A stretch of 64,000 nucleotides of DNA from Acidobacteriota bacterium (GTDB lineage Bacteria; Acidobacteriota; CAIWXX01). Position numbers and translations under genes: made by a program. Location: assembly GCA_040755995.1 (NCBI GenBank), contig JBFMAF010000028.1, positions 128,001 through 192,000 of the forward strand, read 5' to 3'. Positions within the stretch are counted from its first letter, which is position 1; every line of letters begins with the position of its first letter. Of this stretch, positions 27,451-49,882 are shown piece by piece. The notes beneath the pieces were generated by a model. The model was not told where the DNA came from and did not search any database. It saw only the letters and a program-made list of their open reading frames with translations.

Positions 27451-28116
27451 TTAGATGAGGCCCAGCTCGCGGCAGGCGACAAGCATCGGGGGGCGTTGCC
27501 AGAGCCAATCAACCTTGAGCCGAAACCCCGGGAGCACCCTCGAGTGGTAGACACCTTCTGCATCGACCGGGGATGCGCGATAGTGGCCCCTTTCATCTAA
27601 CTCGTAGAACTCGACCTCCTTCCGCCCAGGATCGATCAGCCAGTACTCCCTGACCCCTCCGCACTCGTATTCATAGAACTTGTCGCCCCTGTCGCGCCCG
27701 GCGCTCTCCTTGGACATCACTTCGACAACAACGTCGGCTGGGCCTTGGAGGTATGACGGGTTGAGCCGGTCCATATGAGCCGCGGCGACGAAGAGCACGT
27801 CGGGCTCGCGCCCCACGTCTACCAGCTTCATTTGAAACGGCGCCACCAGCACCTCACCTGCGTGATGCACCTGTGCGTACGCTGTGAGCACCGAACTGAG
27901 AAACTGGACGATCTGTTGGTGTTCCAGGCCCGCAGGGCTGTTCATGATCACCTCTCCTCGAACCCACTCTGTGCGACTATCCTCGCCGGCCCAATCTAGA
28001 AACTCCTCATAGGTCATGTCGGGTGGCCGACCGCCCTTCAGAAGAGCGTCGAGAATACTCCGGCGGAGCTCTTCGGGGAGCACGACTGCGGCTGAGGAGT
28101 CCGTTCTCTGCGCCAT
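27451..28116 (-). CDS. Uma2-family (PD-(D/E)xK) endonuclease
   Basis: MTYEEFL, EWVRGEV, EPDVLFV, PADVVVEVMS, DRGDKF.EY...GVREYWLIDP. Confidence 0.92.
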   Translation of the reverse strand: MAQRTDSSAAVVLPEELRRSILDALLKGGRPPDMTYEEFLDWAGEDSRTEWVRGEVIMNSPAGLEHQQIVQFLSSVLTAYAQVHHAGEVLVAPFQMKLVDVGREPDVLFVAAAHMDRLNPSYLQGPADVVVEVMSKESAGRDRGDKFYEYECGGVREYWLIDPGRKEVEFYELDERGHYRASPVDAEGVYHSRVLPGFRLKVDWLWQRPPMLVACRELGLI

Positions 28117-30063: not shown

Positions 30064-33000
30064 TCACATATTCTCAATCTCGACGATGTGGACATCCCCA
30101 TTGATGCATCCCGCTGCCAGGCGTCGGCCGCCCGGATGCCACGCCACGGAGCAGGGCTTGGTCTCGCTCCGATGCTCGGCCACCTCCCGACCGTCCTCCG
30201 GATCCAGTATCTTGAGATGCCTGTCGAACCCGGCGAAGGCCAGCCATCGACCGTCCGGCGAGAAAGCCAGGTCCAGGGCCAGGACCTTCTTGAGTGTCTC
30301 CAGCCTGAGCCTGCCAGTCTCGATCTCCCAAGTCCGAAGCATGACGTCGCGCTGGTGGGTGGCCTCGACCGCGGAAACAGCGGCCACGCGCGCTCCATCG
30401 GGCGAGATGGCGGAGGCGAACACGGGCTCGCGCTTGTTGATCAGACGGAACCGCTCCGCCCCCGAGGCCACATCCCAGATTCGAAGAGTGCCGTCATAGG
30501 AACCGGAGACAAGGCTGCGGCCGTCCGGCGCGTAGCGCAAAGTAGTGATCCAGCTCTGGTGCCCTCGCAATTCGCGCGCCTCCGCGCCCTGCTCGATCGC
30601 ACGAATCCGGACGATCCCGTCGTCGGAGCCCGATGCGACCCAAGCCCCGTCAGGCGAAATGGCGCAGGCGCGGACGGGACAGGTCACGTCCTGCCAAGTC
30701 CACTCTTCTTGGTACTTCCGCAGGTCCCATACGCGGAGCGCACCGTCTTCGCTGGCTGAAACGAGCCGTTTGCCGTCGGGAGTGATCGCCGCGCCGTAGA
30801 CTTTCTTCGAATCGCCACCTCGAATCAATCCCTCTTCGCCGGCGGTTGCCAGCCGCCCGCCTTCGTGTGTCGCGGCACCGTCTTCGACCGTGCCCCGATC
30901 GGCCGCCGGGAGCGTGGCCAGAAGCTTCTCGGTCAACGTATCCCAAATTCTGATTGTCCCGTCCCAGGATGCGGTGACCAATCGGGTTCCGCCGGCCAAG
31001 AACTGGACCCCACACGCGTGCCCTTTGTGAGCTCCCAGCAGGGGGGACGAACGAACAGGTGCGGTGGTGTGCGCGGCCCGAACCGCAGCCGCGATGTCCC
31101 AGAGGCAGACCGTCATGTCTGTCGAGGCCGAGACCGCACGACGGCCGTCGGGGTGAGCAGCACATGCGCTGACCCAGAAGGAGTGTCCCCTGAGAGTCGC
31201 GAGCTCCTCACCGCTCCCAGAGTCCCAAACCTTGAGCCGTGCATCCCACGACCCGGCCGAGAGGATCCATCTCTCATCATTGAGAAAGACGCAGGCATTG
31301 ACGCCGCCGGTGTGACCTGTAGCGATCCTTAGCGCATCGCCCGAATCGAGGTTCCAGACTCGCAGCGTCTCATCGGCTGCCGCCGTGAGAAGCCGGCGGC
31401 CGTCGCGGCTGAACGTGCATGCCTTCACCTCACCCTCGTGACCGGTGAGCCGCGCCAGTTCGTGGCCGCTCCCAGCCTGGAGGATGACGACTTGGTGGAG
31501 TCGGCCGCCGCAAGCGATCCGCCGGCCGTCAGGAGAGAACGCGCAGGCGTAGAGGCCCATGTCGCGAGGACTGACATCGCAGATGATCTCACTGGTCGCC
31601 GAATCCCAAATAACCAGGCGCCCTTCCTCGCCGGCCGACGCGATGCGATGGCCATCGGGTGATACCGCGCATGCGTTCACTTGCCGAGCATGACTCCAAA
31701 GGGTGCGGCCGGCGGGGCCGGTGTCCAGATCCCAGATCCGCAGCGTCGAATCGTTGGACGCCGTGACGAGCCGCCGCCCATCTGGGAAGAATGCGCAGGC
31801 GGTGATTCCGCCTGTGTGCTGCCTGTGTTCGTGGAGAAGCGCGCCAGTCTCGGCATCCCACAGAAGCAGATGTCCGCTGTCGGTCCCGGCTGCGATGATC
31901 CGGCCGTCAGGGGATAGTGCACACGAGAGGAAGCCCATGGAGCCCAGAAACCGCATGACCAGGGCGCTGTGGCCGGCCTGGGGCTTGTTCAGCCAGCGAA
32001 CCCAAGGGCGGCGTTCACGTCCACAGCGGGTTCTCTCGCGAGCGGCCACGGCCAGTGGCGAGTCGTCGGGCTCATTGGCGGCCATCGAGAAGAGCAGATT
32101 CGGACGGATGGCGAGAATGTGGCTTCTTGATTGTATGAACCGGGCGAACGCCGCCAACCGGGCGCGCGCCGACTCGGGCCAATCGGGCCGTGCCAAGGCT
32201 GCGTTGAAATCGGCTACGAGGGCGAAGGCGAGCCCCGCCGCGCATTTCGCTTCGAGGAACTCGAGGTCGCCGAGGAGGGAGACTGCCTCATCTCTCAGGT
32301 CCGCACTCAAGAGGTGGGCCAGAAGGTGGCTCAGGGCGTAGGGATCGCACCGGCCGTGGCCGAAATCGGCGAGTAGCCTCTCCCCGATTCGGCGGTCGCC
32401 GGCAGCGCGGTCGACGCGGTAGCGGCGGCTTCGGCCGGCCACTCCGGAGAGCCAGTCAGCGATCGATTTGTGGAACGGCCGATAGCGCCCGTCGCGCTCG
32501 GGGAAGAAGGCAGCCAATTGTTCCAAGTCGGACGCCACGGCGAAAGGCGAGCGGTCCAGGAAACGGGCAACTTGTTCGGCCGAGAGCGGTTCGCGTGCTG
32601 CGGTCAGAACTTCGAGGAGGGGACGGATCGCGTCATAGCCTCTTCCCTCAGGGAAGGCCCGGGCGAAGAATCCCTGGTAGATCCCCACCAGTCCTTCGGG
32701 GAATGCGGACACGGCAGAAGGGTCGATCTGCCCCGACTCGACGGCGGCAACGGCCTGGGTGACGTAGAGGAAATTGCCCGAGCCACCCGTGGCGATTCGC
32801 GTGGCCAGCGCTGCGGCGTCGGCACCGGCCCCGCGAAGGCGTTCCGCCAGAGCCGGCTCGGCGAGACGCCGGCTGAGGTATACGCGGATGTCCTCGAGAT
32901 TCTCGGTGCGGGCAGCATCTATCTCGTGAGGCCGGAATCGGCTGAACAGGTCGAGGATCTGCGGCTCCTTGCGGGTGCTCAGCACCAACCGCAGCCAGGT

Positions 33001-33939
33001 GGGCAGGTCTTCCAATCGCTCGGCCAGCAGCCTGGCGATGTGGCGTGAGCCGTACGCCATGCCTTCATCCAGGGCGTCCACAGCGAGAATAAGCGTCTCA
33101 TGCTGCAGCTCGGCCCTCAGTGGATCGAGAACGACTCGTCGCAGCAACGATCCAGGATCGCCGTCTGCCAAGGCGTCCAGGTCCAGCGCCTCCAGGGCGG
33201 TCCGGTAGCCGGGCAGCTGCGTGCGCAGCTGGGCTGCGATCGAACGCACGAACCGCACGGGGTCCAGCGAGTCGGCCAGGCTTGCAGCGCACAGGTGGTA
33301 GGCGGCTACTCGCGGGTGGTGTTCCACCAACCAGGCGACGATGGCCGACTTGCCCGTGCCGGGGTCGCCTGTTATGAGGAAGACACGACTACTGCCGTTG
33401 TCGGCAAGCCAGGTGGAGAGTTCCGCAAGAAGCCAGTCGCGACCTGTGAAGCCGCGGGCCAACCGGGCCAGTTCCGCGCCGAAGTCCAGTGGCCTGAGGC
33501 GCGCAAGCGGGGCCGCAGTGACTCCTTCGATGCTCGGCGCGGACGCAGCGAGCGAATCGAGTAATCGCTGCAGGGCCCGCTCGTAGCGACCCGCGGCCGT
33601 CCAGTCCTGGAAGTCGATCCAGTCCAGGCGGTAGATCCCGAGGGGCGGGCGGCACTGGAGCACCATCACCGGGATGATGCGTCGCCCGTTATAGCGGGCG
33701 AGGCTGATCTCGTCGAGACACACGCCGTCGGGGCGCCGTACGGCGTGGGGCGAGAGAAGCGCCACGAACACGTCGCACCCCATAATGGCCCCCTCGATCT
33801 GCTCCTCCCAGGAGCGCCCCGCAGTAATCGCGCGGCTGTCAAGCCAGACGATGTGGCTGCGCCCAGCAAGGTCGGTAGCCAGCCGTGCGGCCAGCTCCTG
33901 CGCGTCCGCCCGCCCGTAGCTCATGAACACGCGCATCAT
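30064..33939 (-). CDS. TIR - NACHT/STAND ATPase - WD40 repeat protein (bacterial NLR-like)
   Basis: [10 protein letters not shown]...W.D...CLDEI; Walker A GDPGTGKS; Walker [23 protein letters not shown]; about 14-15 WD40 repeats; RBS AGGAGG. Confidence 0.92.
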
Positions 33940-34646
33940 GCCACCTCCTGCGCTCCCCCGGCCCAATCGACTTCGGGTTCCAAGATGTCCCGCTCTCAAG
34001 GGGGCCGTCTTGACGACAGTCAACTCTCACGGACGCCATTATCCCGTGCTGACCACCATCCTGCAAGGTGTGCCTAACAGTTTTGGGGGCGGTCGGCTGC
34101 CCACCATCGACAACACACGACAAAGCCCGATGCCCGGGCCGAATTCCGTGGCCGTTGGCGTTACCCGACGCCGCGTTGCGCGTGTTCCTTCGCTCGAAGA
34201 GAAGAGGTACCCCCATTTCCGTTAAGCACCATCCTGCGAGCATACACCAGAATCTGGCGGCAAGTCTGGAGCATCGGTGAGTGCGGAGTCGTTGTGCCGG
34301 CCGTCACCCGATGCCCATGATCTCGGCGATGACCCCCCGGGCGACATCCTCCAAGTGAGCGATGCCCTCCGCCACGGCCGCCGTTCCTTTCAGCGTCTTG
34401 CCTACCAGTTCAAGCCGCTGTACGTTGGCGAAGAGAAGCTTGTGGATCGGCACTGCGGTCTTTCGCCAACCCCACGCGACCTCGGTCTGGAGGAACCCCC
34501 CGAAGGCCTGCAATCGGGCTGCCAGCGTCTCGGAGCCCCAAAGGCGCATTCTGGTTGAGTAACCACGTTGAGTTATCTACGGATCGGTTGTTGAGATTAC
34601 CCAACTCTGGTAGTATGGATGCGAACTCAACGATCAAGAGGAGCAT

Positions 34647-36332
34647 ATGGGTACTCGAGCACTGCAGTGTGTGGCCGGTGCAAACGCCGTCGTGGTGTCT
34701 CGTGCCGAGCTGGAAACGGACTCGGTGCAGGCATTCGCCGGCGTGAAAGAACAGGAAGGTCCCGTGGCCTATCTCGTCCGCAACGAGGACCTGCCGTTGT
34801 TGCGTTCGTTCAAGGACCTGGTGGTTGATCGAGGTAGCAAGCACGAAGCCAGACCTCTCTCTAAGCTGCTGCTCCGGTGTTCCAAGATGCCCGTGGTACT
34901 AGGCGGCTTTTCCGCGTCGGGGCAGCTGAAGCGGAGCGTCAGAAGGGTGCTGCATAATGCCACGAAGGCGAACGATCGGAACGTGTACCTGGTGGGGGTG
35001 GAGCGGGCGATCTTCGAAGAGCTGTGGGACGAGGCCAGGCCGGAGGCGGGCGCTGGAGCCACGGCGACTCCACAAGGGGCGGTGAGAAGCCGGGCGGCGG
35101 AGGCCGCCTTGACACCTCAGGCCACAACGTCCGCCCGCACTCTCCTGGAGCTGCTGCCCCGCACAGAGGTCCCCGCAGAACTGGAGAAGCGGTTCGTCGG
35201 CAGGTCGATCGAGGCTCAGGTGGTCCACCGGCTGGTCATGCACGCGGCACGGTCGGGTCATCCCGTGCTCATCATAGGAGATACCGGCACCGGCAAGGAG
35301 GTCGTGGCCCGCTGCATCCACGACTACAGCAACCGCACTGGGTTCACGCCGGTCAACTGCGGCGCTATCCCGAGCGAGCTGCTGGAGACCGTGCTCTTCG
35401 GGAACAAGGGTAGGGTCTTTACGGGAGCGGATCGGGAGCGAAATGGATTATGGAAAGAGGCGGGTAAGGGCACCCTCTTCCTGGACGAGATTGCGGATCT
35501 GCGTTTGGACCATCAGGTCAAGATTCTGCGCGCGATAGAGACCAAGAAGATCAGACCGCTGGGGGCGAGAGATGAGATCGACGTCCCGGCGCGGGTGATC
35601 GTCGCGAGCAACCGCGATCTCTTCTCGCTGGTTCAGTCGGGGTTGTTCCGGGAAGATCTTTACTATCGCCTCCGTACCTTCATGATCCGCACGCCGTCGC
35701 TGCGAGATTGTGCCGAGGACATTCCACTGATTGCTGATTTCCTGTGGAAGCGGGTGACGGGTGACGAACGGGCAGCCCTCCCCGAACCGATCTTGGCGGA
35801 GCTGGGGTCGCATGGTTGGCCGGGGAACGTGCGAGAGCTCAAGGCGATTCTCGCGAATCTCAACTCATTGTTCGGAAAGGACCGTCTTCGGGTCGACCAC
35901 CTTCGAGCGACAATCGGGCTGCAGGGCAGCCGGCCGGCACGTGGCGCCGGTGAGGACGAGATCGGCCTCCACCGCGTCCAGTGCCTCCGTCACCTGAAGC
36001 GGGTTGACGAGGTGGTACGCGCGAGCAAGGTAGCGCTGAGGCCGCTGGTGGAGCCGAAGCGGCAGGATCCCGAGAGCATCGCCTCGGTTCGAGTCGCCTT
36101 GCGTCACCGCCTGGACGAACTCGAGGTCCTATGCATGCACCCGCTCCTGTTCAGCAGCGAGGTCGCGTTTTCGATCGTGCATCGTCTCAAAGGCAAGCTG
36201 GCTTACTACGACAGCCTCCTCGAGACTGGCGCCACGAATGCCCTGCGCTACTGGAGGCGGGAGGCGGCCGAGGAGTACAAGCTGGCCGTCTCGACGCTCT
36301 TCCAGGAAGTCAATCGCCTGACCAAGATGTGA
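34647..36332 (+). CDS. sigma54-activator-type AAA+ protein with unknown N- and C-terminal domains
   Basis: GDTGTGKE, NCGAIP, LFG..RVFTGA, LFLDEI, FREDLYYRL, WPGNVREL; no Fis HTH seen. Confidence 0.85.
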   Translation: MGTRALQCVAGANAVVVSRAELETDSVQAFAGVKEQEGPVAYLVRNEDLPLLRSFKDLVVDRGSKHEARPLSKLLLRCSKMPVVLGGFSASGQLKRSVRRVLHNATKANDRNVYLVGVERAIFEELWDEARPEAGAGATATPQGAVRSRAAEAALTPQATTSARTLLELLPRTEVPAELEKRFVGRSIEAQVVHRLVMHAARSGHPVLIIGDTGTGKEVVARCIHDYSNRTGFTPVNCGAIPSELLETVLFGNKGRVFTGADRERNGLWKEAGKGTLFLDEIADLRLDHQVKILRAIETKKIRPLGARDEIDVPARVIVASNRDLFSLVQSGLFREDLYYRLRTFMIRTPSLRDCAEDIPLIADFLWKRVTGDERAALPEPILAELGSHGWPGNVRELKAILANLNSLFGKDRLRVDHLRATIGLQGSRPARGAGEDEIGLHRVQCLRHLKRVDEVVRASKVALRPLVEPKRQDPESIASVRVALRHRLDELEVLCMHPLLFSSEVAFSIVHRLKGKLAYYDSLLETGATNALRYWRREAAEEYKLAVSTLFQEVNRLTKM

Positions 36333-37783: not shown

Positions 37784-38386
37784 TCACTGCTCTAGGTATG
37801 CCCGCAGGGCGTCAACGAGCTCGCGCCTCCGAGCGCCCATTACGATGAACTCTATCCGATCGCCCTTCTGGAATGCCAGCTTGCCCGGGAAGATGAGGGA
37901 CTTGACGCTCAGATACTCCTTGCCGTTCATGACGAAATTGCAGGAATCCATGCGAGGGAAGTGCAAGTACACCTCGCAATCGTAGATCCTGGCGACATCA
38001 CCGAGTCTTGATGTAGGCTCGATCTGGTGCCCTTCCTCCTTCTCGATAGCCTGAGTCACAACAAGGAACTCGTTGGCTTCGAGACTCTCCTTTTCTCTTC
38101 TCCAGATCTCGGCGAAGCGCCGAATCCACTCTGCAGCGGCCCGTTCCTTTCCAATATCGCGGCCTTCTTCCTGAGAGCGATACCACTGGTGCTTCTCTAT
38201 TTCACCCAGTTGCTCCGTGTTCTCCTGCTGCAGCTTTGAGCCGGCCCACAGGGCCCGGTATCGCGCCGTGAAATCCTCGATGGCCTCTTCGATGGAAACC
38301 TCCTTTCCCGATTTCTCCGAGAGATACCACTTGTGCTCCTCAATGGCTCGGAGCTCCGACGCGTCCAGTTCGGCTTTCTCGACCAT
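37784..38386 (-). CDS. Tandem DUF4032-like repeats fused to an HPr-like domain
   Basis: Two repeats (I..H.WY.S...G..); C-terminal EEGHQIEPTSRL...A..Y.C.V...SVKSLI...L.FQKGDRIEF...G. Confidence 0.7.
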   Translation of the reverse strand: MVEKAELDASELRAIEEHKWYLSEKSGKEVSIEEAIEDFTARYRALWAGSKLQQENTEQLGEIEKHQWYRSQEEGRDIGKERAAAEWIRRFAEIWRREKESLEANEFLVVTQAIEKEEGHQIEPTSRLGDVARIYDCEVYLHFPRMDSCNFVMNGKEYLSVKSLIFPGKLAFQKGDRIEFIVMGARRRELVDALRAYLEQ

Positions 38387-38680
38387 GGCTGCCCCCTTCG
38401 CCTTCTCCCCTCTGGAACACGTCTGCAGAAACCATGCCAGGTAACTCAACCGCTCACCCTTGTCGCCAGATGGAGCTGTAGAATCCTCGAAGAATCATGG
38501 TAGCATCAAACAAGGTGTGATGTTCGTCCCGAGGATTGCTGAGGGAGAAGACCTTGTGGATCACGACACGCAGGCCAGTGACTCACCTCCACGTCGGAGG
38601 GTCGAAGGCCATGGTGATCGGCACCTTCAGAGTCTCCGGTGACTCTCATTGTTCATGACCACCGAATGAGGAGGACTCCG

Positions 38681-39826: not shown

Positions 39827-42478
39827 CTACCTCTTCACCCGTTCCACCGCATACCCTGTGCGCGCCAGGATGCGCGGGATACCGCGGATCATGTCGCGAT
39901 CGATTTGTTTGATAGCGTCCGAGAGCTGATCCCATTCCACGAGATACTCGTTCCGCTTCGGGTCATCCGGCGTTGGTTTGCCGAGCTTGAATCCGGCGGC
40001 CAGCTTTGCATCCATCCACAGCTGATGCTCGATCTGTGCCAGCTTCTCCAGGTCGTCCCCCGGGAACTCAAGCGGGGGTTGGTTGCTCCGCGAGGGAAGC
40101 ATCGCGTAGCCGGCCATGCTCAGCTTCAAAGGGATCGCGCGCACCGTCACTCGGTTCGATTCCTTCGCCAATTCGGGAAGCTGGTCATACGGTATCAGCA
40201 GCGGGTGGGTCTTCGCCTGCTCGCTCTTCGTTTCTCCGTAGCGCCACCCGTCTCGTACTTTCCCATCGCAGAAGACGTCGTGTGCGGCGGCAGCCAGACG
40301 CTCCAGGAGCTCCTCGGTCAGCACGATCTGCTGCACCAGCGAGAGAAACTCCAGCCCGTTGACGTGCAGGTTGAGCTGGTCCTCGGGAGGCAGGCACGAG
40401 CGTTCGTAGCACGCCTTGCCGCTGAGCTGGCTCATCATGACGATCGACTCCATCGATCGTGCGCCGTGGCGGTACCGGCTCACTTGGAGATACGCACGCA
40501 GAACACCGGCGTCGATGCGGAGCAGTTCCAGCCCGCTTTTCTTCTCGACGAGCTGAGGCGACTGGCGCGAGAGCATCGATCGGAGCAGGATCGCTCTCCG
40601 GATGATGTGGTGCGGATCCGAACTGGCGTCCCCGCCGACTGGATTCGGGCCCATCACGGTCACGTGCCCTTTGAGCCGGCTCACGAAGTCCGGTCCTTTA
40701 GCTGCCCGGAACTGCTCCTCGGTCAACCCGTGGCCGAAGCTCTCCATGCGCTCGCAGGTGCCGCCCGCGAAGACGAATATCGCGGGCCCTATCGGGTGCA
40801 CCACCTGCCCTTCCTGGAAGACGCCGTCCTGCATGGGGGCGAGGAAATGGCGCAGCCAGCCCAGAGGCTGCCCCTGCAGCGCCGTGTCGAACTCGTCCCA
40901 AAACACCAGCGGCATGCTGCCTGAGAGCCCCGCGTCCCGCACCTGATGCAGCGCCTGATGGAGCTCGTCCACATCTTCGATCTGCGACAGGTTGAACTCC
41001 AGCCTCTTGATAACACCGGGGAGCAATGACCGCGCCACCTCACCAATTCCGAACGACTTCCCGGAACCGGGCGATCCGAACACGGCGATCGAGATCGGGC
41101 GCTTCTGGCGGCTCTGGCTGCAGTACTCGCCCACCAGCGCACGGATGCTTCTGAAGCTCTCGATCTCGTGGCGGTCGACCGTAAGCAGATTGCCGAAGCG
41201 CCCGTGCGGTACGTCTAGAAGCGCTCTCTCGACACCCTCTAACACAACGCGTTGTGCCACCTGGTCTAGCGAATCGGGGTGACGGTCCTCGAGGATCGTC
41301 CAGAAGCTCGTGTCGCTGGTGTGAGGCGCCGTCGGCTGCCGCTGCGTGATGAAGCGCACGGGGTCCTGGACTTCGACCACCGCGTAATTGGGCGCGTCCG
41401 CGCCGATCTCTCTGGCGATCTGCTCGATCGGGAACTCCAACTGCGTCCCTTCGTGTCCCTCGGCACGGCTCACGTAGCCATCGAGATGGAGCCTGGTGAC
41501 GGCGGCCAGACCGGCCTGGATGCCCCGCTGTATCTGCCGATTCGCCGGATCGATCATCAGTTCTCGAGCGATGGCGGCGGTCAGACACGTGTCGTAGCCG
41601 ACCATGCCGCCAAAATGGTCGTGCGCCCACATTCCCTCTATGACCTCGGGGTCGAAGAACAGGAAGTACTTTGCGGCCGGGGCGCCAACTTCTGCAGCGG
41701 TTCGCGACAGAAGGAAAGCTCCCGCCCCGTCGAACGAAACGACGACGTGAGCGCACGAGGAGAGCGCATTGACCCTGGGGTTGTGCATTATCTCCCAGGC
41801 CAGGTCCTGCGCCGTCCGCTCCCACGAGAGCTCGCGGCTGATCTGTACTTCCGTGCGCCTCAGGTCATCGACGTGCATGATCGCGATGAGTCGCCCCTGG
41901 AACGTATTGCGGAGGTGTTCCCACAGCGCGCCCGCCGCGATAGGGCGTGACATCCTGAGGACCGCCCAGCAGCGCGGCGAGGGCCGCTTCACCGCCTCGG
42001 GCCAGACGTCCGGTCGGCCTCGGAATCCCAGGTCGGCGTCGTCGATGACGATCAGGTCGACGGTCTCGGGGTCGGCCTCGCAACGCGAGAGCGCCGCGCC
42101 GTCACTGCCCGGATCGGATCCGATGAACTCGGCGACCCGCCAGGCGGATCGGCGTGGGCCCGATTTCGAGCTGTGGTCGTAGGGCGACCAAATGGCGAAG
42201 GTCTGATGGTAGCGGCGGTCGTCGGGTGAGATGCTCCCCCGAGGCTCCTCGATTCTCTTGACGAGCCAGGTCCCCTTCGCCTCCTCCGGCAGTTGTCCGC
42301 CGATCGCCTCGATGAGATCGCCCAGGCGCGCGGCCCCGCCTCGCTGCCAGGAGGCGCGGGCAAGAGAACTCGACTGAGTTCTGGCCGCGTGGGGATCGGG
42401 GGTTCGCGCGATGCTCCAGTCGACCGTGATATGGCCGGTGACCAGTGCGACTTTCTTGGAACTGCCGGTGCCTGTCAT
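39827..42478 (-). CDS. PfkB-like N-terminal domain + AAA+ ATPase + two RyR repeats
   Basis: LVTGHITVDW...GGAA; Walker A GSPGSGKS; Walker B VFWDEFD; HGARSMESI; RyR repeats LA...H..F...GWRYG...KTHPLLIPYDQL...K..NR and LA..EH..W...LVEWDQL...K..DR. Confidence 0.85.
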   Translation of the reverse strand: MTGTGSSKKVALVTGHITVDWSIARTPDPHAARTQSSSLARASWQRGGAARLGDLIEAIGGQLPEEAKGTWLVKRIEEPRGSISPDDRRYHQTFAIWSPYDHSSKSGPRRSAWRVAEFIGSDPGSDGAALSRCEADPETVDLIVIDDADLGFRGRPDVWPEAVKRPSPRCWAVLRMSRPIAAGALWEHLRNTFQGRLIAIMHVDDLRRTEVQISRELSWERTAQDLAWEIMHNPRVNALSSCAHVVVSFDGAGAFLLSRTAAEVGAPAAKYFLFFDPEVIEGMWAHDHFGGMVGYDTCLTAAIARELMIDPANRQIQRGIQAGLAAVTRLHLDGYVSRAEGHEGTQLEFPIEQIAREIGADAPNYAVVEVQDPVRFITQRQPTAPHTSDTSFWTILEDRHPDSLDQVAQRVVLEGVERALLDVPHGRFGNLLTVDRHEIESFRSIRALVGEYCSQSRQKRPISIAVFGSPGSGKSFGIGEVARSLLPGVIKRLEFNLSQIEDVDELHQALHQVRDAGLSGSMPLVFWDEFDTALQGQPLGWLRHFLAPMQDGVFQEGQVVHPIGPAIFVFAGGTCERMESFGHGLTEEQFRAAKGPDFVSRLKGHVTVMGPNPVGGDASSDPHHIIRRAILLRSMLSRQSPQLVEKKSGLELLRIDAGVLRAYLQVSRYRHGARSMESIVMMSQLSGKACYERSCLPPEDQLNLHVNGLEFLSLVQQIVLTEELLERLAAAAHDVFCDGKVRDGWRYGETKSEQAKTHPLLIPYDQLPELAKESNRVTVRAIPLKLSMAGYAMLPSRSNQPPLEFPGDDLEKLAQIEHQLWMDAKLAAGFKLGKPTPDDPKRNEYLVEWDQLSDAIKQIDRDMIRGIPRILARTGYAVERVKR

Positions 42479-42687
42479 GGTTTGACTCCGTCGAGTTGGG
42501 TCTCTGTTACGAAGAGGCTGTGTCCGATGCCGATGTCCAAACTCCAGAATCACATTCTACTATGTTTCACATGACTAGCTGCCGACTCTGCTAGGGGCAG
42601 TAGACACGGCGCCGGGGAATCGAGTATGAACATGCCATCGAGTTGCTCGGCCGAGCGCCTCCAGCACTCGGAGAACGGGAGGGATAC

Positions 42688-43635
42688 ATGGACGCGTTTC
42701 AATCAGAACATGACATCCTGCGCTATTCGCGGCAGGTCGTGCTGAAGGCGATGGACAATGTGCGGGCGAGGATGCGCGGCTCCGATCGGCTGACACTCAG
42801 CGGCACCGTCGAGAGCCCGCAGGTCGCGAAGGCAGAGCTGAACCTGACGAAGGGCATCGATGCCGCGACAGAGGAGCTGATCGTCGGGACCCTGCAGAAG
42901 AAGCTCGCCAGGATACCCGCGATCAAGACGTTCTCGGTCTTCTCGGAGGAATGCGGGATTTTGAGGTTTCCTCGCGGGGCGAAGGAGGCCGACGCGGACC
43001 TGGTGGTCTTTGTCGATCCGATCGACGGCACCGAGTTCATCGAATCACTTCAGGGCGGCTGGTGCCTCGTCGCGGTGTATGACCGCAGGGCCAATGAGAC
43101 CATAGTGGCCGTGGCCGGCGACATCTTCCTTGACCGCCTCTACTGGGCATCCAAGAGCAGCTACGCCGAGGCGATCGACTTCGCGACACACTCATGGTTC
43201 AAGCTTGACGGCGGGCCGAATCCGAAGACGGAACTTGCCGGAGCGCGAGTGAACTTCCTGACGACGAAGGTTGGCCGTTACACATCGGTGGCGAAACAGA
43301 AGCGTTTACTCGACGCCATCAAGCGAAAGGACGGCAGGATCAACCTCTCATGGGGCTCGAACATGATCGTGCAGGTTGCCGCGGGATACGCGGATGCCGC
43401 CGTCGAGTTCACCAAGGGATTCGCGACCTACGACCTCATCCCCGGGCTCTTCATCGGCCTCCGCGCGGGGCTCACGATTCTTGACCTGAAGGGAAACCGA
43501 ATCGGGACGACGCTGGATATCGACGAGATCTTCGCGACCTGGCGGAGAGACCCGAAGCGCCCGAAGCGGATGTCGTTCATCGCGGCCAAGCACGAGAAGC
43601 TGGCGAGGGAGATCCTGGAGCTCCTGGAGTTATAG
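42688..43635 (+). CDS. Inositol monophosphatase/FIG-superfamily metal-dependent phosphatase
   Basis: D...E..I, SEE, DPIDGT, YDL..G metal-binding motifs. Confidence 0.85.
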   Translation: MDAFQSEHDILRYSRQVVLKAMDNVRARMRGSDRLTLSGTVESPQVAKAELNLTKGIDAATEELIVGTLQKKLARIPAIKTFSVFSEECGILRFPRGAKEADADLVVFVDPIDGTEFIESLQGGWCLVAVYDRRANETIVAVAGDIFLDRLYWASKSSYAEAIDFATHSWFKLDGGPNPKTELAGARVNFLTTKVGRYTSVAKQKRLLDAIKRKDGRINLSWGSNMIVQVAAGYADAAVEFTKGFATYDLIPGLFIGLRAGLTILDLKGNRIGTTLDIDEIFATWRRDPKRPKRMSFIAAKHEKLAREILELLEL

Positions 43636-44136
43636 CTCGAATCGGCTCAGGCACCATGCGCAACGCAGGGTCACGGCGTCGTCCCATCTGCCATTCGAGA
43701 TATCGTAAGCGACCGATGCCGTGACGGTCGGCGGGCGCAGCTACAGAGCCCGCGCGATTTCATTCAGGCAGTACCCATCGGGCATCCGCGCCGAATGCGG
43801 TGTCATCAGGAGGACTACCCTGCCCGTCCGTGGGATCTCGGAGGCCCAGTCAAGGCCTTGCTCGATATGGCTCTCCCAGTCCGCGCCGGGCTTGAGCTTC
43901 TCCACGTCGAACCAGACGGCATGCCCATGCGCGACAAGGTCTTCTTTCAATCTCTGAGCAACCGCAGCATGTTCGTCATGCCCGTAGCTCAGAAAGATGC
44001 GGCGGGAGGTACGCAGCTTCCCGGCCGAGAACTCATCGCAGCAATCCACGCACACCTGAACTTGGCGCTTGGGGCTGAAGTGGAGATTCGGCGACCCGCA
44101 CGCGGGGCAGACCGTATCGGCTGGCAGACCCGACAT
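43630..44136 (-). pseudogene. Truncated zinc-ribbon + TIR protein
   Basis: CPACG...CVDC; TIR RIFLSYGHD...VWFD...PDGYCLNEIARAL then TAG at 43741-43743; in-frame tail ...GRWDDAVTLRCAWC. Confidence 0.75.
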
Positions 44137-44223
44137 TTCGCGGGGATTCTAAGGAAGCGCGTGGGACATGACAATGTGCGGGAGCCGCGCAGCCGCGCAT
44201 CTGACAGGAGGCGCAGAAATCGC

Positions 44224-44252
44224 TTGACTGGCGGGCTTCACCTGCCTATGTT
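44224..44252 (+). promoter_or_regulatory. Putative sigma70 promoter of Nudix-channel-synthetase operon
   Basis: TTGACT-17-TATGTT. Confidence 0.5.
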
Positions 44253-44426
44253 GGGATACCATGTCTCTGGAATGGCGCAGCGAACACTGCTCTGTCCGCT
44301 GCCGCGTCAGTCTGGAGTCCTGGATTCTGAAAGAGAGGTCCCGAGCACTCGGGCCCGATTCCCGAGAAGATCTGCACTGGAGCACAATACGGACGCGCAG
44401 TCGTCCCGAAAGCGGAGGTGGATCGA

Positions 44427-44837
44427 ATGGACAAGCCGTTAGGGGTCGCGGGGAAATCGATCATCAGGAAACAGGGCAAGATCCTTCTGCTCCAACGCTC
44501 GCTGAGCTCCACGCATGACCCCGGCTTGTGGGAGCTGCCGGGCGGGAAGATCGAATATGGCGAGGTCCTGACGGAGGCGCTCGAACGAGAGGTCACAGAA
44601 GAAACCGGGCTCACGATCGAGGTACGCAAACCCATCACGACGTGGCACTTCTACAAGCTGCCGTTCTGGGTCACCGGGGTCACGTTCCTGTGCGACCACG
44701 TCGGCGGCGATGTCACGCTGAGCTCGGAGCACTACACGTACGCCTGGATCGATCCCCTGGAGTACCGTAACTACTCGCTGAGCACCTCCATGAAGGAACA
44801 GATCGAGGCGTATCTCGAGAGCCAACGACTGTCATAA
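44427..44837 (+). CDS. Nudix hydrolase
   Basis: Complete Nudix box GKIEYGEVLTEALEREVTEETGL; WELPGG; SEH..YAW; RBS GGAGGT. Confidence 0.93.
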   Translation: MDKPLGVAGKSIIRKQGKILLLQRSLSSTHDPGLWELPGGKIEYGEVLTEALEREVTEETGLTIEVRKPITTWHFYKLPFWVTGVTFLCDHVGGDVTLSSEHYTYAWIDPLEYRNYSLSTSMKEQIEAYLESQRLS

Positions 44838-44852
44838 CGCGATGCAAGTGCG

Positions 44853-46685
44853 ATGACAGAGGCGACCACTAAGCCATCCCGCCGGGCACCGGCGCACCCG
44901 AGGAGATCGCTCTGGCGGAATCGCGTCAGGTCATTCTGGCTCGACATCCGATGGTTTGTCCTGGGCGCCCTGACTGTCTTCACCTTGGGTCTCGGCTGCG
45001 TGGGATTCCATGGGCACTTCGAACTGACGGGTGAATACAGGTCGCCTGGCGATCTCCTCTACCTCTCGCTGCAGCTGTTCACGCTCGAGTCCGGCTCGAT
45101 TGTGCCTCCGATCCCATGGCAGCTCCAGATCGCGCGCCTGCTCGCTCCGGCAATCGCCGTCTACACCGCGGTGCAGGCGCTGCTCGCCCTCTTCCACGAG
45201 CAGCTGCAGCTACTCCGCGTGCGCTTCGTGAAGAACCACGTCGTCATCTGCGGGCTCGGCCAGCGCGGCCTGCACCTCGCGCAGGGATTCCGCGACCGCG
45301 GATACCGCGTGGTCGTCGTGGAACATGACGAGGATGATCCGCTGATCGGATCGTGCCGCGAACGCGGTGCGATCGTTCTGATGGGTGACGCCAGAGATCC
45401 GGCCATCTTGCGAAAGGCGAGAGTCCACCGCGCCGCATACCTGGTCGCGGTCTGCAGCGACGATGGGATCAACACGGAGGTGGCTATCCAGGCTGAGAAG
45501 CTGGTCCGGAGTCGCCGGGGGTCAGTGCTGGCGACTTTCATCCACATAGAGGACGTCGAGCTCTGCAGCCTGCTCCGTGAGCGAGGGCTGGCAAGCGAGG
45601 AGATCTCATCGTTCCGCCTCGAGTTCTTCAACATCCTCGAGACCGGCGCCCGGCTGATGCTCGACCACTTCCCGGCTCTGGAGAGGCCGCCGGGCGAAGA
45701 GGTCCCGGACTCGCCCGCAGCACCTCCGCACATCGTTGTGATCGGTCTGGGCAAGATGGGACGAAGCCTGGTGGTTGAGGCGGGGAGACGCTGGTGGCTG
45801 AGGCATTCATCCGACGGCAGCAGACTCCGCATCACCGCACTCGACAATGCGGCCGACACGAAGAAGGCGGTCCTGTGCATCCGCTACCCGCAGCTGGACA
45901 GGGCCTGCGACATCACCCCTTTCCAGATCGATCTGAGCTCCATCGAATTCGAACGAGGCGACTTCATCTTTGCCCCCGGCAGCCGGTGTGATGTTAGCAT
46001 CGTATATCTCTGCTTTGACGACGACGTGCACGCGCTCGCGGCTGCACTGTCGCTCCACCAGAGAACCCGCGAATACCGAATCCCGATCATAGTCCGAATG
46101 AGCCACGACGGGGGACTGGCTTCGCTGATGCAGCCGCTGGCGGGCGGGCCGGGCACATTCGAAGACCTCCACGCATTCGGCATGCTGGAACGCGCGTGCA
46201 CGCCGGAGCTGCTGCTGAGCGGCACGCACGAGCAGCTCGCGCAGGCGTTCCACGAACAATACGTGGTAGGGCGAGAAAAGGCAGGCGACACGCCGCAGAC
46301 CAACAAGGCCATGGTGCCATGGCATGCGCTGCCGGAGGGCCTCAAGGAGTCCAACCGGCGCCAGGCGGACGACGTGGCCGTTAAGCTCAAGGCGGTCGGG
46401 TGTCGAATCATGCCTCTGGCCGACTGGGCGCAGCCGCCGCTGGAGCTCACACGGGAGGAAGTGGAGCTTCTGGCGAAGATGGAACATGCGCGCTGGTGCG
46501 ATGAGCGCCGCACGGCCGGCTGGCGCTATGCACCGCCGCCGAAAAACGAGGCGAAGAAGACTAGCCCGTATCTCGCAGCGTGGGGGGAGCTTGATGAGAA
46601 GACGAAGGACATCGATCGCGACGCGATGCGCTCCATCCCTGCGACCCTGGCACGGGCGGGGTTCCAGACCTATCGACAGAGATAG
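44853..46685 (+). CDS. Membrane protein: 2TM/pore-like segment + two TrkA-N (RCK) domains + two RyR repeats
   Basis: TM-LYLSLQLFTLESG-TM; HVVICGLGQRG and HIVVIGLGKMG Rossmann motifs; RyR repeats PW..LPE.LKESNR.QAD and LAKMEH.RW...GWRY...KTSPYL..W..L..K..DR. Confidence 0.88.
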   Translation: MTEATTKPSRRAPAHPRRSLWRNRVRSFWLDIRWFVLGALTVFTLGLGCVGFHGHFELTGEYRSPGDLLYLSLQLFTLESGSIVPPIPWQLQIARLLAPAIAVYTAVQALLALFHEQLQLLRVRFVKNHVVICGLGQRGLHLAQGFRDRGYRVVVVEHDEDDPLIGSCRERGAIVLMGDARDPAILRKARVHRAAYLVAVCSDDGINTEVAIQAEKLVRSRRGSVLATFIHIEDVELCSLLRERGLASEEISSFRLEFFNILETGARLMLDHFPALERPPGEEVPDSPAAPPHIVVIGLGKMGRSLVVEAGRRWWLRHSSDGSRLRITALDNAADTKKAVLCIRYPQLDRACDITPFQIDLSSIEFERGDFIFAPGSRCDVSIVYLCFDDDVHALAAALSLHQRTREYRIPIIVRMSHDGGLASLMQPLAGGPGTFEDLHAFGMLERACTPELLLSGTHEQLAQAFHEQYVVGREKAGDTPQTNKAMVPWHALPEGLKESNRRQADDVAVKLKAVGCRIMPLADWAQPPLELTREEVELLAKMEHARWCDERRTAGWRYAPPPKNEAKKTSPYLAAWGELDEKTKDIDRDAMRSIPATLARAGFQTYRQR

Positions 46686-46704: not shown

Positions 46705-49212
46705 ATGCATGAGCGGAACACCGACTCGAAGTCAGCTGACCGTGAATGGGCCCGGAAACAGATCGCCACATTCCGATCGCGGCTGGGGGACTACGAGGGG
46801 TTTGCCAGGGTACTGAAGGCGGTGCTGGAGCAGGTCGCCCGAAAGCTCGCTCCGCAGGCCATCGTCCAGACGCGCCCCAAGTCCATCGCCAGTTTCGCCG
46901 ACAAGATCTACCGCAAGAGGGCCGGGCACAAGGACCCCGTCAACCAGTTCACGGACCTGTGCGGCGGCAGGGTCATCGTGCACACGCCGGAAGAGGTGAA
47001 GGCAATCTCCAAGTTCATCGAGGATCACTTCATTATCGACTGGGACAACAGCGTCGACGTCAGCCAGCGCCACAAGCCCACCGAGTTCGGTTACCGCTCC
47101 GTTCACTACATCGTCAGCTTCAAGCGGCGCGCCTTTCCCAATGCGTGGGCGGATGTGAAAGTCCCCAGGTTTCTTCTCGATATGAAGAACCCCCGCGCCG
47201 AGATCCAGGTCAGAACCCTCCTCGAACATGCGTGGGCGGACATCTCTCATGACCTCGTGTACAAGTGCGGCTTCAAGATACCCTCGGGCCTCGAGCGCGA
47301 GCTTGCGGCAGTGGCCGCCCTTCTCGAGAACGCGGACAGCTCTTTCTCGCGTATCGTGACCGCGTTGCGCACGTATGCATCCTCTTATGGCGTCTACATG
47401 ACGCCGGGTCGGATGCGCCAGCAGATCGAACTTCTGGAGTTCGTGTTGGGGCACGACCGCGAGAACGTGCAGCTGGCTTCGAAGCTCGGGCAGCTGGCCA
47501 TCTCGCTTGGCGATTGGGAACTGGCCGTGCGAGTGTTGGGGAAGCACACCCGGAGCGGCCACACGGTCGTTCTGAGAGACCTGGGCAGGTCCCTGTGCAA
47601 GCTCCACGCGCAGAATCCCCGTGGTCGTGATTACCGGCAGGGCCAGAGGTTCTTGGAGAAAGCCGCTTCCGGCGCGGAACCAGACCGGGATGCGATTGCC
47701 ATGCTGGCTGGGACCTGGAGGCGCGTCGACACCGAGAAGGCGCGGCAGCTGTACCTGCGCGCCTACGAGATGGATCCGACGGATTGCTATGCGCTCGGGA
47801 ACCATCTGGACGCCGAAATCGAGGCCCGGAAGGACGTGTCGATCGTCCAGCTGATGACTCCCGTCATCCTCGCGTCGATCAATCGCTGCCGGCAGCAGGC
47901 AAGGGTGGGCATCAACCTCCCCTATGCGTTTTACGCCATGGGGAAGTTCTACCTGTACATGGAAAGACCCTACGAGAGCCTTGTCGCATATGCCAAGGCC
48001 CTCCAGCTCAGCAGCGCGCCGTTCATGATCGAAAGCCCGCTTCGATCGATTGAGGGATTGAAGCCGATCCGGGATACGCTCGCCGGGTACAACTGGGTAC
48101 ACACCCTGCTGCTAGCGGGACTCGCCGCGAAGTTCCCGACCGACGCACGGCGCAAGGCGCTCAAGGAACTCGCTTCGACGAAGCCGATCGAACCGCCGAT
48201 AGTCATCGTTGCGGGCGGCTGTGATCCCGCGTTCGAGCAGGAGATGTCGAGCTATCGAGACCTGGTGATCGGTGCTTTCCGAGATTACACGGGAACGGTC
48301 ATCTCCGGCGGCACGATCGAAGGGATCAGTGGATTCGTGGGAGACCTGGCAGAGAAGTATCGAGGGTCGATTCGCACACTATCCTACCTCCCCAAGATGA
48401 TCCCCTCAGACGCCACGTTGGACCGGAGGTATGATGAAATCCGCAGGACGGAGGGCTCGGGGTTCAGTCCGTTGGAGCCGCTTCAGAACTGGGTGGACAT
48501 CATCAGCGCCGGAATCTACCCCGCGACGGTGAAGGTCCTGGGGATCAACGGGGGCAGCATCTCGGCGGTGGAATACCGGCTGGCCCTGGCTCTTGGCGCC
48601 AAGGTCGGCATCGTCGAAGACAGCGGCCGCGAGGCCGCTAAGTTGTGGCCCGACGAGGACTGGGGCTCGGCCGAAGGGTTGGCGAAACTTCCCAAAGATC
48701 CCATGACGCTCCGTGCCTTCATCGGCACGGGCGAGCCACGCTGGAAGGAAGATGAGCGGAAGGCCGTGGCGCAGGCGATCCACCAGGAATACAGGATGAA
48801 TCGCATGAAACGGGAGATTGAGGCTGATACCGCAATGGCACCCTGGGGAGCCTTGCGAGAGGAGCTGGTGCGATCGAACCTTCAACAAGCTGACCACGTC
48901 TTCGAGAAACTCGGAGAGATCGGGTGCACGCTCGTGAAGATATCGGGAAGGAAGATCAAGCTGCTCAGGTTCACAGGTGACGAGGTGGAGAAGATGGCCG
49001 AGATGGAGCACGGAAGGTGGAACGCGGAGCGACTGCTGGATGGATGGAGTTGGGCGCCGGACCGCGATCCTCTGAAGAAGACCAGCCCGTACCTGGTGGC
49101 ATGGGCGGACCTGCCGGAGGATGTGAGGGAGTGGGATCGGGCCACGGTGCGCAAGATTCCAGAGTTCCTGGCGAACATCGGGTACGAGGTCCGGAGGGGT
49201 CGGAGGCGATAG
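46705..49212 (+). CDS. RelA/SpoT-type synthetase + TPR + SLOG-like domain + two RyR repeats
   Basis: RPKSIASF..K, DLCGGRVI, GYRSVHYIV, EIQVRTLLEHAWADISH.L.YK; TPR-like helices; ISGGT..GI and GG.IS..EY.LA...G..V...SGR.A; C-terminal RyR repeats; RBS GAGGAGG. Confidence 0.88.
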   Translation: MHERNTDSKSADREWARKQIATFRSRLGDYEGFARVLKAVLEQVARKLAPQAIVQTRPKSIASFADKIYRKRAGHKDPVNQFTDLCGGRVIVHTPEEVKAISKFIEDHFIIDWDNSVDVSQRHKPTEFGYRSVHYIVSFKRRAFPNAWADVKVPRFLLDMKNPRAEIQVRTLLEHAWADISHDLVYKCGFKIPSGLERELAAVAALLENADSSFSRIVTALRTYASSYGVYMTPGRMRQQIELLEFVLGHDRENVQLASKLGQLAISLGDWELAVRVLGKHTRSGHTVVLRDLGRSLCKLHAQNPRGRDYRQGQRFLEKAASGAEPDRDAIAMLAGTWRRVDTEKARQLYLRAYEMDPTDCYALGNHLDAEIEARKDVSIVQLMTPVILASINRCRQQARVGINLPYAFYAMGKFYLYMERPYESLVAYAKALQLSSAPFMIESPLRSIEGLKPIRDTLAGYNWVHTLLLAGLAAKFPTDARRKALKELASTKPIEPPIVIVAGGCDPAFEQEMSSYRDLVIGAFRDYTGTVISGGTIEGISGFVGDLAEKYRGSIRTLSYLPKMIPSDATLDRRYDEIRRTEGSGFSPLEPLQNWVDIISAGIYPATVKVLGINGGSISAVEYRLALALGAKVGIVEDSGREAAKLWPDEDWGSAEGLAKLPKDPMTLRAFIGTGEPRWKEDERKAVAQAIHQEYRMNRMKREIEADTAMAPWGALREELVRSNLQQADHVFEKLGEIGCTLVKISGRKIKLLRFTGDEVEKMAEMEHGRWNAERLLDGWSWAPDRDPLKKTSPYLVAWADLPEDVREWDRATVRKIPEFLANIGYEVRRGRRR

Positions 49213-49552: not shown

Positions 49553-49882
49553 TTGCCTTATGAAATCCAGGGCGCGCCCGAGCCGGTGAGGGCCCGCCTC
49601 CTGGAGATACCGGAAAGGCACCAAGTGATGTTGGCGGATACACCCGATGCGGCTGAGTTGGCGGAGGCCTACCTTAAGCACGGGGTTGTGGGGCCAGGCA
49701 GCCGCTCGGACGCGCTGCACGTCGCGTTGGCTACGCTCGGACGTGTGGATGTGCTGGCCAGCTGGAACTTCAAGCACATCGTGAACCTTGGCCGGATAAG
49801 GCTGTTCAATGCTGTGAACCTGGAACAGGGATTCGGATTGATCGAGATCCGTACCCCACAGGAGGTGGTGTCTGATGACTAG
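49553..49882 (+). pseudogene. PIN-domain protein lacking N-terminus
   Basis: EI..AP...LAEAYL...DALHVALAT...D.L.SWNFKHIVN...IEIRTP.EV; first PIN motif (DTSV-type) absent. Confidence 0.75.

Follow-up and report, generated by a model that had tools for sequence, protein, structure and literature searches.

What might switch on an alarmone synthetase that has no hydrolase domain of its own, and what might switch it off again? The question is raised by a gene on the forward strand (46705..49212) of a 64,000-nucleotide stretch of an Acidobacteriota bacterium genome (contig JBFMAF010000028.1, positions 128,001 to 192,000), which we refer to as the window. The gene encodes an 835-residue protein (P0001) in which a RelA/SpoT synthetase domain is followed by a TPR-like solenoid, a SLOG domain and two ryanodine receptor (RyR) repeats. 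An earlier note on this gene had read the product as a sensor-effector; the fold assignments below uphold its domain calls and support that view in part, refined now by a Nudix companion, a probable TIR-made signal and a candidate site in the RyR repeats, and a sensor-gated synthetase is our best reading of the protein. We propose, with a probability of roughly one half, that it is the effector of a conflict system signalling through TIR domains and resembling type I Thoeris, in which the alarmone synthetase replaces the SIR2 NADase and a Nudix hydrolase resets the system.

The ATG at 46705 is preceded by GGAGG. A longer frame of 962 residues opens at 46324 and was rejected as the gene start because it overlaps the upstream gene, because homologues begin near 46705, and because of the GGAGG ahead of the later ATG. 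Pfam recognises RelA_SpoT (residues 56-188, E 1.8e-17), TPR (weak matches, 240-437), LSDAT_prok (E 0.017) and RyR (750-830, E 4e-12) in the protein, and gives no match to HD, TGS or ACT at E<=0.1. An AlphaFold model made with 111 homologues has a predicted local distance difference test score (pLDDT) of 90 and a predicted template modelling score of 0.82, with every domain assigned, and in a Foldseek search the whole model matches RelQ/SAS1, RelP, CapRel and the Repeat12 of human RyR3, with E values between 1e-6 and 6e-5. The synthetase domain occupies residues 1-228 (46705..47388; Pfam, Foldseek and residue alignment), the TPR-like helical solenoid residues 229-490 (47389..48174; weak Pfam matches in a region that is all-helical in the model), and the SLOG domain, of the LSDAT/TRPM-like clade, residues 494-676 (48184..48732; domain model, fold search and Pfam). 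RyR repeats 1 (48742..48942; alignment) and 2 (48958..49200; Pfam and alignment) complete the protein, all on the forward strand.

The synthetase motifs listed in the earlier note (RPKS..S, DLCGGR, GYRSVH and EIQVRT..HAW) and those it gave for the SLOG-like segment (IVAGG, ISGGT..G, GG.IS..EY.LA and SGR.A) are all present in the reading frame, its TPR-like helices coincide with the weak Pfam matches and the helical region, and both of its RyR repeats are found, the first of them degenerate. The absence of HD, TGS and ACT is likewise borne out by Pfam and by the model. Its statement that there is no hydrolase holds for the 835-residue chain itself but not for the family, in which a dedicated Nudix enzyme accompanies the synthetase and, in 4 of 30 SLOG-family representatives, shares a single chain with it. 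With 835 residues and four modules the protein is not a small single-domain alarmone synthetase (SAS), and Pfam and the model show that it does not have the layout of a long RelA/SpoT homologue (RSH), with HD at the N-terminus and TGS and ACT at the C-terminus.

Comparisons across the family draw on 148 fetched loci together with the window; 142 of them have the synthetase domain. After removal of 7 that were either RyR-only or missing the N-terminus, clustering at 85% leaves 115 loci, window included. Many contigs are short and each count given below carries its own flank requirement. The catalytic residues of FaRel2 are R64, K66, S70, K74, R77, D90, G93, R95, Y128, E145 and Q147 (PMC11782079), and their counterparts here are R57, K59, S63, K67, R70, D84, G87, R89, Y130, E166 and Q168, with within-motif spacing that matches FaRel2; H134 is also among the motif residues of the domain. 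The protein therefore carries the donor-site R/K/S/K/R, the catalytic D, the G and R, the acceptor-stacking Y, and the E and Q of a SYNTH domain. Nine of the eleven are invariant in the 113-115 non-gap rows of the 115 dereplicated homologues, the exceptions being S63 (kept in 109/113) and R70 (105/113). The acceptor cannot be told from the sequence, and the accessible parts of PMC11782079 and PMC12691689 offer no usable motif for acceptor or product specificity beyond surface charge and the N-terminal extension of FaRel2. Our tentative first choice of product is (p)ppGpp, with (p)ppApp a possible second, and a product made from tRNA or another acceptor would be the least likely.

In a quick tree of 43 synthetase domains, 22 family rows lie on one side of a branch (Shimodaira-Hasegawa-like approximate likelihood ratio test, SH-aLRT, 95) that separates them from stand-alone synthetases of 330-375 residues, CapRel, Listeria and Staphylococcus SAS and long RSH enzymes, although several reference branches are long and CapRel SJ46, itself on a long branch, is the sole toxic SAS (toxSAS) included. 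The source genome additionally encodes a long RSH elsewhere and another small synthetase. A truncated long RSH was rejected as an explanation of the 835-residue protein, as the genome's long RSH is separate and the family stands apart from long RSH in the quick tree. The protein resembles RelQ/RelP and the toxSAS enzymes (CapRel, FaRel and FaRel2) in being synthetase-only, in its full catalytic set and in its best fold matches, but differs from them in its three added modules and in the partner hydrolase of its family, which is a Nudix enzyme and not an HD-type small alarmone hydrolase.

The SLOG domain was a point on which the earlier note had in advance staked its interpretation, and here the fold search and the LSDAT_prok matches agree with it. 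Since no SLOG structure appeared in the rows listed for the whole-protein Foldseek search, residues 490-678 were modelled alone (pLDDT 94.7); this model matches the folds of TRPM N-termini and of MoCo-carrier, LOG, DprA and ThsA SLOG domains. The best 25 rows of a VIA comparison with 48,161 chains are, apart from one titled 'ciliary tip central pair', all chains that we take from their entry titles and general knowledge of the superfamily to be SLOG domains or TRPM N-termini. The match to 1rcu has Z 18.1 (root-mean-square deviation 2.6, 160 aligned), that to TRPM2 Z 15.3, and that to the ThsA SLOG in complex with 3' cyclic ADP-ribose (3'cADPR) Z 10.2. LSDAT, which was reportedly defined by Burroughs et al. 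in 2015, is represented by LSDAT_prok matches at E<=0.01 in 111/113 family members, and the domain has the Rossmannoid fold and glycine-rich loops of SLOG proteins. By sequence, alignment against PDB chains gave nothing below E 0.03, and the assignment was resolved by the fold searches only. Its nearest neighbour in fold is TRPM2 MHR1/2, which is a site for ADP-ribose (PMC13143021), and in ThsA the SLOG domain both binds 3'cADPR and controls the enzyme (10.1101/2022.09.19.508568). As the TPR-SLOG module also ends adenylate/guanylate cyclase-AAA16-TPR proteins (P0289, P0294 and P0330), we regard it as a portable sensor. No relatives of the SLOG domain in viral contigs were present among 103 pattern matches.

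Judged from its conserved residues, the RyR pair may offer another site for a ligand besides SLOG. A phage Repeat12 protein cleaves 2'/3'cADPR by way of H75/D117, W78 and H100, and six of eight homologues bind the signal without cleavage (PMC13232231); in gp68 the site is made up of H129, W132, K147, H154, K170 and D171, and mutant pairs at the phosphate-His and K170 sites weaken binding ~100-fold (10.64898/2026.06.04.730250). Aligned to gp68, repeat 2 presents H769, W772, R787, S794, W810 and D811. Among these H769, W772 and D811 correspond to H129, W132 and D171, that is, to the His/Asp dyad and adenine-stacking Trp of Repeat12 cADPR binders, and they are kept in 79/79, 76/79 and 76/78 homologue rows respectively. 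Repeat 1 presents H693, Y696 and N725. The His, Trp and Asp are likewise kept in the second repeats of a membrane protein and a P-loop protein encoded in the window. The likeness to the phage RyDEP and RyR Tad proteins extends to the Repeat12 fold and to the His, Trp, Asp and basic residue at the same spacing, whereas the pair in the window is encoded by the host, occurs in tandem as part of an effector and has its phosphate-binding His replaced. Both ligand-binding folds of the 835-residue protein are thus also those of the TRPM2 N-terminus (MHR1/2, LSDAT) and of the ryanodine receptor Repeat12, but here they are placed on a soluble prokaryotic enzyme, and the SLOG identity is 13-18%.

Not all members carry the RyR pair: 78 of the 115 homologues run to the RyR end and 16 stop after SLOG, the remainder being cut or split. 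RyR as the essential sensor was rejected on this basis, and SLOG is therefore the probable core sensor. Where 3 kb upstream is available, another RyR protein is present in 8/10 loci with an RyR-less synthetase compared with 23/53 loci with a full one. RyR pairs are also fused to a PP2C/SpoIIE phosphatase (L029:12489-14516) and a DUF6036 nucleotidyltransferase (L006:9497-10477), and a TrkA-N protein carries several RyR repeats (L005:421-4326), so RyR is a mobile module in these islands.

The Nudix gene in the window (44418..44837, forward strand; Pfam and subgroup profile) has an intact Nudix box and belongs to the subgroup linked to the family. That one subgroup is found within 3 kb in 62 of the 101 loci with >=700 nt upstream available, and <=200 nt upstream of the synthetase in 50 of them. 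Among 30 representatives of the SLOG family, which were picked for unusual length among the best 150 of 1057 SLOG clusters, four are single Nudix-synthetase-TPR-SLOG-RyR chains (P0271, P0272, P0296 and P0356) in which the Nudix domain is N-terminal, at the position of HD in long RSH. These fusion chains share with long RSH enzymes (Rel/RelA/SpoT) the order of hydrolase, synthetase and then regulatory domains, but with Nudix for HD and TPR-SLOG-RyR for TGS-ACT. Pairwise distances of Nudix and synthetase are correlated over 60 loci (rho 0.38, 0/999 permutations as high), which demonstrates co-inheritance and not function. A scan of 80 loci anchored on Nudix finds the synthetase in 3/7 of those scoring >130 bits and in 0/73 others. 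Alarmone-degrading Nudix enzymes are on record (PMC9293644, PMC3153485). The linked subgroup includes PDB 3grn (E 5e-39), a 'MutT related protein' of unassigned function, and at one locus a TrkA-N-Nudix fusion (L129:2830-4098) stands directly 5' of a synthetase.

With profiles built from the neighbour genes themselves, TIR or DUF4062 domains are detected within 5 kb in 35 of the 47 loci that have 5 kb on both sides, and anywhere in the locus in 39/47; the same domains occur in 1.6% of random windows of the source genome. A check with Pfam TIR_2 on the 36 genome-collection loci among the 47 gives 19/36 against 0.51 expected from the same-genome density (103 matches in 36 genomes, 155.6 Mb), matches having been mapped by coordinates without contig names, with at least one of the 24 mapped matches a coincidence. 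The catalytic Glu is kept in 79/79 neighbouring TIR domains. The partners themselves vary, comprising DUF4062- or TIR-NTPase-WD40/TPR, TIR-TPR and TIR-ClpN proteins. From this gene context the upstream signal is probably TIR-made. Other recurrent neighbours are SLATT-like, YbjN-type chaperone and Clp genes; YbjN/TY-Chap1, ClpB/C-like ATPase and ClpP genes stand beside the cassette in L009, L019, L023, L041, L081, L082, L120 and L143.

In the model that we propose, a variable TIR or DUF4062 protein with NTPase, WD40 or TPR sensors would detect infection and make a NAD-derived signal of the ADP-ribose type, as the gene context suggests. This ligand would be taken up by the SLOG pocket, joined in most members by the RyR Repeat12 pocket; the folds and key residues of both are present. 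The TPR solenoid would then relay the change allosterically to the synthetase, whose catalytic set is intact and which would move pyrophosphate from ATP to a nucleotide, the predicted phenotype being growth arrest. The linked or fused Nudix enzyme would clear leaked product or reset the switch, substituting for HD, and a membrane protein with RCK and RyR domains may provide an optional second output for the same signal. The likeness to type I Thoeris (ThsB TIR and ThsA SIR2-SLOG) lies in a TIR partner with a catalytic Glu at many loci of the family, the adjacent copy in the window being broken, and in a SLOG domain C-terminal to the enzyme. However, the effector here is a RelA/SpoT synthetase and not SIR2, the SLOG domain is of the LSDAT-like kind, scoring Z 10 against ThsA and 15 against TRPM2, the TPR, RyR pair and Nudix are extra, and most of the TIR partners are large proteins, either NLR-like or fused to TPR. 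PADLOC gives no ThsA match, and because it lacks a SIR2 effector the 835-residue protein is not a member of type I Thoeris.

The membrane protein is encoded between the Nudix and synthetase genes of the window (44853..46685, forward strand) and in 30/115 loci. It has 610 residues, with two predicted transmembrane segments and a pore helix, two RCK (TrkA-N-like) domains and an RyR pair (Pfam TrkA_N and RyR). Across 30 homologues the hydrophobic segments are conserved, as are two GxG motifs, and a conserved LQLFxLESG replaces a GYG filter. It is a candidate prokaryotic channel bearing Repeat12, a function suggested by sequence features. A sigma-70-like promoter match (9/12; 44224..44252, forward strand) lies ahead of the Nudix-channel-synthetase genes and a divergent one (10/12; 44146..44174, reverse strand) ahead of a TIR gene, both as consensus matches. 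That TIR gene (43636..44136, reverse strand) is an internally deleted remnant of a Zn-ribbon-TIR-NTPase-WD40 gene, consisting of a 131-codon open reading frame (43741-44136) and the old 3' end. The frame is 86% identical to the first 131 residues of an intact 1479-residue paralogue on contig C35, and the start and the old 3' end both match this paralogue by blastn. The paralogous island (L158, G000:C35:82000-101999) has 71-86% DNA identity to that of the window, and holds the intact TIR-NTPase-WD40 gene, two DUF4062-NTPase-TPR genes and only fragments of the Nudix, channel and synthetase genes. The two islands have the same divergent layout, with TIR-NLR on one side and Nudix-channel-synthetase on the other, and each has lost the other's half, so we conclude that the ancestral unit held TIR, Nudix, channel and synthetase.

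An intact NLR-like TIR-P-loop-WD40 gene (30064..34023, reverse strand; 1319 residues; TIR_2 E 8e-23 and WD40, Walker A read in the sequence) lies 12.7 kb from the synthetase and is a candidate source of a signal that might reach it. The P-loop protein (39827..42553, reverse strand; 908 residues; Pfam and alignment), an NTPase that ends in an RyR pair, has relatives in 9/115 loci; the phosphate-binding His (H783) is retained in the first of its two repeats, its N-terminal region is without domain assignment, and it belongs to a conserved family lacking a specific name. A phosphatase of the inositol-monophosphatase family (42643..43635, forward strand; Pfam) is a rare companion, found at one other locus (L037, 68%). 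A sigma-54 activator (34647-36332, forward strand), shared by the two paralogous islands and the locus of a related genome, may regulate the island. A gene that joins DUF4032 repeats to an HPr-like domain (37784-38449, reverse strand) has an 83% DNA match in L159 near a homologous cassette. A PIN-domain gene lies just 3' of the synthetase (49553-49882, forward strand), and on the far side of the TIR-WD40 gene there is one for a Uma2 endonuclease (27451-28116, reverse strand), which is consistent with an island.

Several observations weigh against the Thoeris-like interpretation. In the window the adjacent TIR gene has been disrupted, yet the synthetase gene itself is intact. Across loci the partners are heterogeneous and 12/47 have no TIR or DUF4062 within 5 kb; TIR genes are in any case concentrated in defence islands, so that the enrichment, measured against random windows and genome density, may reflect co-residence. 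Related genomes remain among the loci, so that the counts are not independent and overstate independence. The SLOG domain is closer to TM1055, TRPM, MoCo-carrier and LOG (Z 13-18) than to ThsA (Z 10), and its ligand therefore need not be cADPR. In repeat 2 the phosphate-binding His (H100/H154) is replaced, by S794 here and by S, N and T in 61, 11 and 7 of 79 rows, and the position of gp68 K170 is Trp (W810). Finally, 39/101 loci have no Nudix gene within 3 kb and 4/7 high-scoring Nudix loci have no synthetase, one of them being cut 400 nt downstream; an obligate Nudix-synthetase pair was rejected on these counts.

The alternative that survives best, although we consider it unlikely, is a self-contained fused toxin-antitoxin comparable to CapRel, in which the TPR would bind a phage protein, SLOG and RyR would hold the enzyme off, Nudix would be a type IV antitoxin and the TIR genes would be mere neighbours. 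The two-gene layout with Nudix within 200 nt upstream fits this idea, as do the 8/47 well-flanked loci without any TIR or DUF4062, the survival of the synthetase in the window next to a broken TIR gene, the occurrence of the nearest stand-alone relatives in prophages and plasmids, and a PADLOC match to PDC-S33 (E 1e-17). Yet the SLOG glycine loops and the RyR His, Trp and Asp are conserved far beyond what a passive lid needs, and full-length identity of 47-63% across phyla and domains does not suggest a fast-changing sensor for direct recognition. Somewhat less probable again is a relay, in which the synthetase product would be a second messenger gating the RCK-RyR protein or other effectors and Nudix would end the pulse. 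RCK domains bind nucleotides, the RCK-RyR gene sits between Nudix and synthetase in the window and recurs among the loci, and SLATT-like membrane genes adjoin some of them; but 85/115 loci, many on short contigs, show no RCK-RyR gene, and the membrane protein has an RyR pocket of its own that keeps the His, Trp and Asp, suggesting parallel sensing. A metabolic stress sensor outside defence, with SLOG and RyR reading AMP, ADP, ATP or NAD breakdown products to tune (p)ppGpp, would accord with human RyR3 Repeat12 structures that hold ATP, ADP or AMP-PCP by their titles and with best synthetase fold matches to non-toxic RelQ/RelP, but is improbable given the patchy distribution, the TIR/NLR neighbourhoods, the decayed paralogous copy and the occurrence in archaea, where (p)ppGpp was undetected in the two species examined according to PMC10249747.

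The family appears to be widespread in bacteria and archaea and apparently unstudied. A search returns 847 proteins at E<=1e-10 among 8000 candidates scored, of which the best 120 are 47-63% identical and all have RelA_SpoT and RyR tags; among the matches listed, this full-length identity spans phyla and domains. With a SLOG-domain profile, 1057 clusters at 50% identity are recovered, and 666 of these score E<=1e-30. The 71 genome loci are all from metagenome-assembled genomes and 12 are archaeal, and a full-length copy is present in 2 of 41 genomes (the source genome and 40 relatives). Plasmids give 16 synthetase-domain matches, none covering 80%. One synthetase has an extra C-terminal KaiC-like ATPase (L034:1466-4648). 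In the main texts of the open literature we found neither RyR, RelA and SLOG domains together, an architecture that Burroughs et al. 2015 may list, nor a small alarmone synthetase fused with TPR and Nudix; the main text of PMC7229694 mentions no Nudix, TPR or RyR, although its datasets may classify these proteins.

Two 2026 preprints describe phages that deploy Repeat12 domains against TIR signals (PMC13232231, 10.64898/2026.06.04.730250), and we propose a host-side role for prokaryotic Repeat12 domains. The protein also provides a compact and soluble setting in which the ligands of Repeat12 and of TRPM-type SLOG domains can be sought. If the Thoeris-like interpretation is true, an alarmone synthetase joins the effectors triggered by TIR signals, and two second-messenger systems are linked. 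A broader picture, doubtful at present, is of a two-messenger immune cascade in bacteria and archaea, in which a cyclic ADP-ribose signal from NLR-like TIR proteins would be read by Repeat12 and LSDAT-SLOG domains on the synthetase, the RCK channel and the P-loop NTPase, leading to an alarmone burst with Nudix as the off-switch. Were this cascade true, the phage RyDEP and RyR Tad proteins would derive from a host receptor captured by phages, and the island could serve as a prokaryotic model of how ryanodine-receptor and TRPM domains sense nucleotides. Atkinson et al. 2011 pointed to a gap in archaea, where synthetases occur without HD hydrolases (PMC3153485). The answer that we propose is that such synthetases may depend on Nudix, and the Nudix-synthetase fusions would represent an independently assembled bifunctional RSH.

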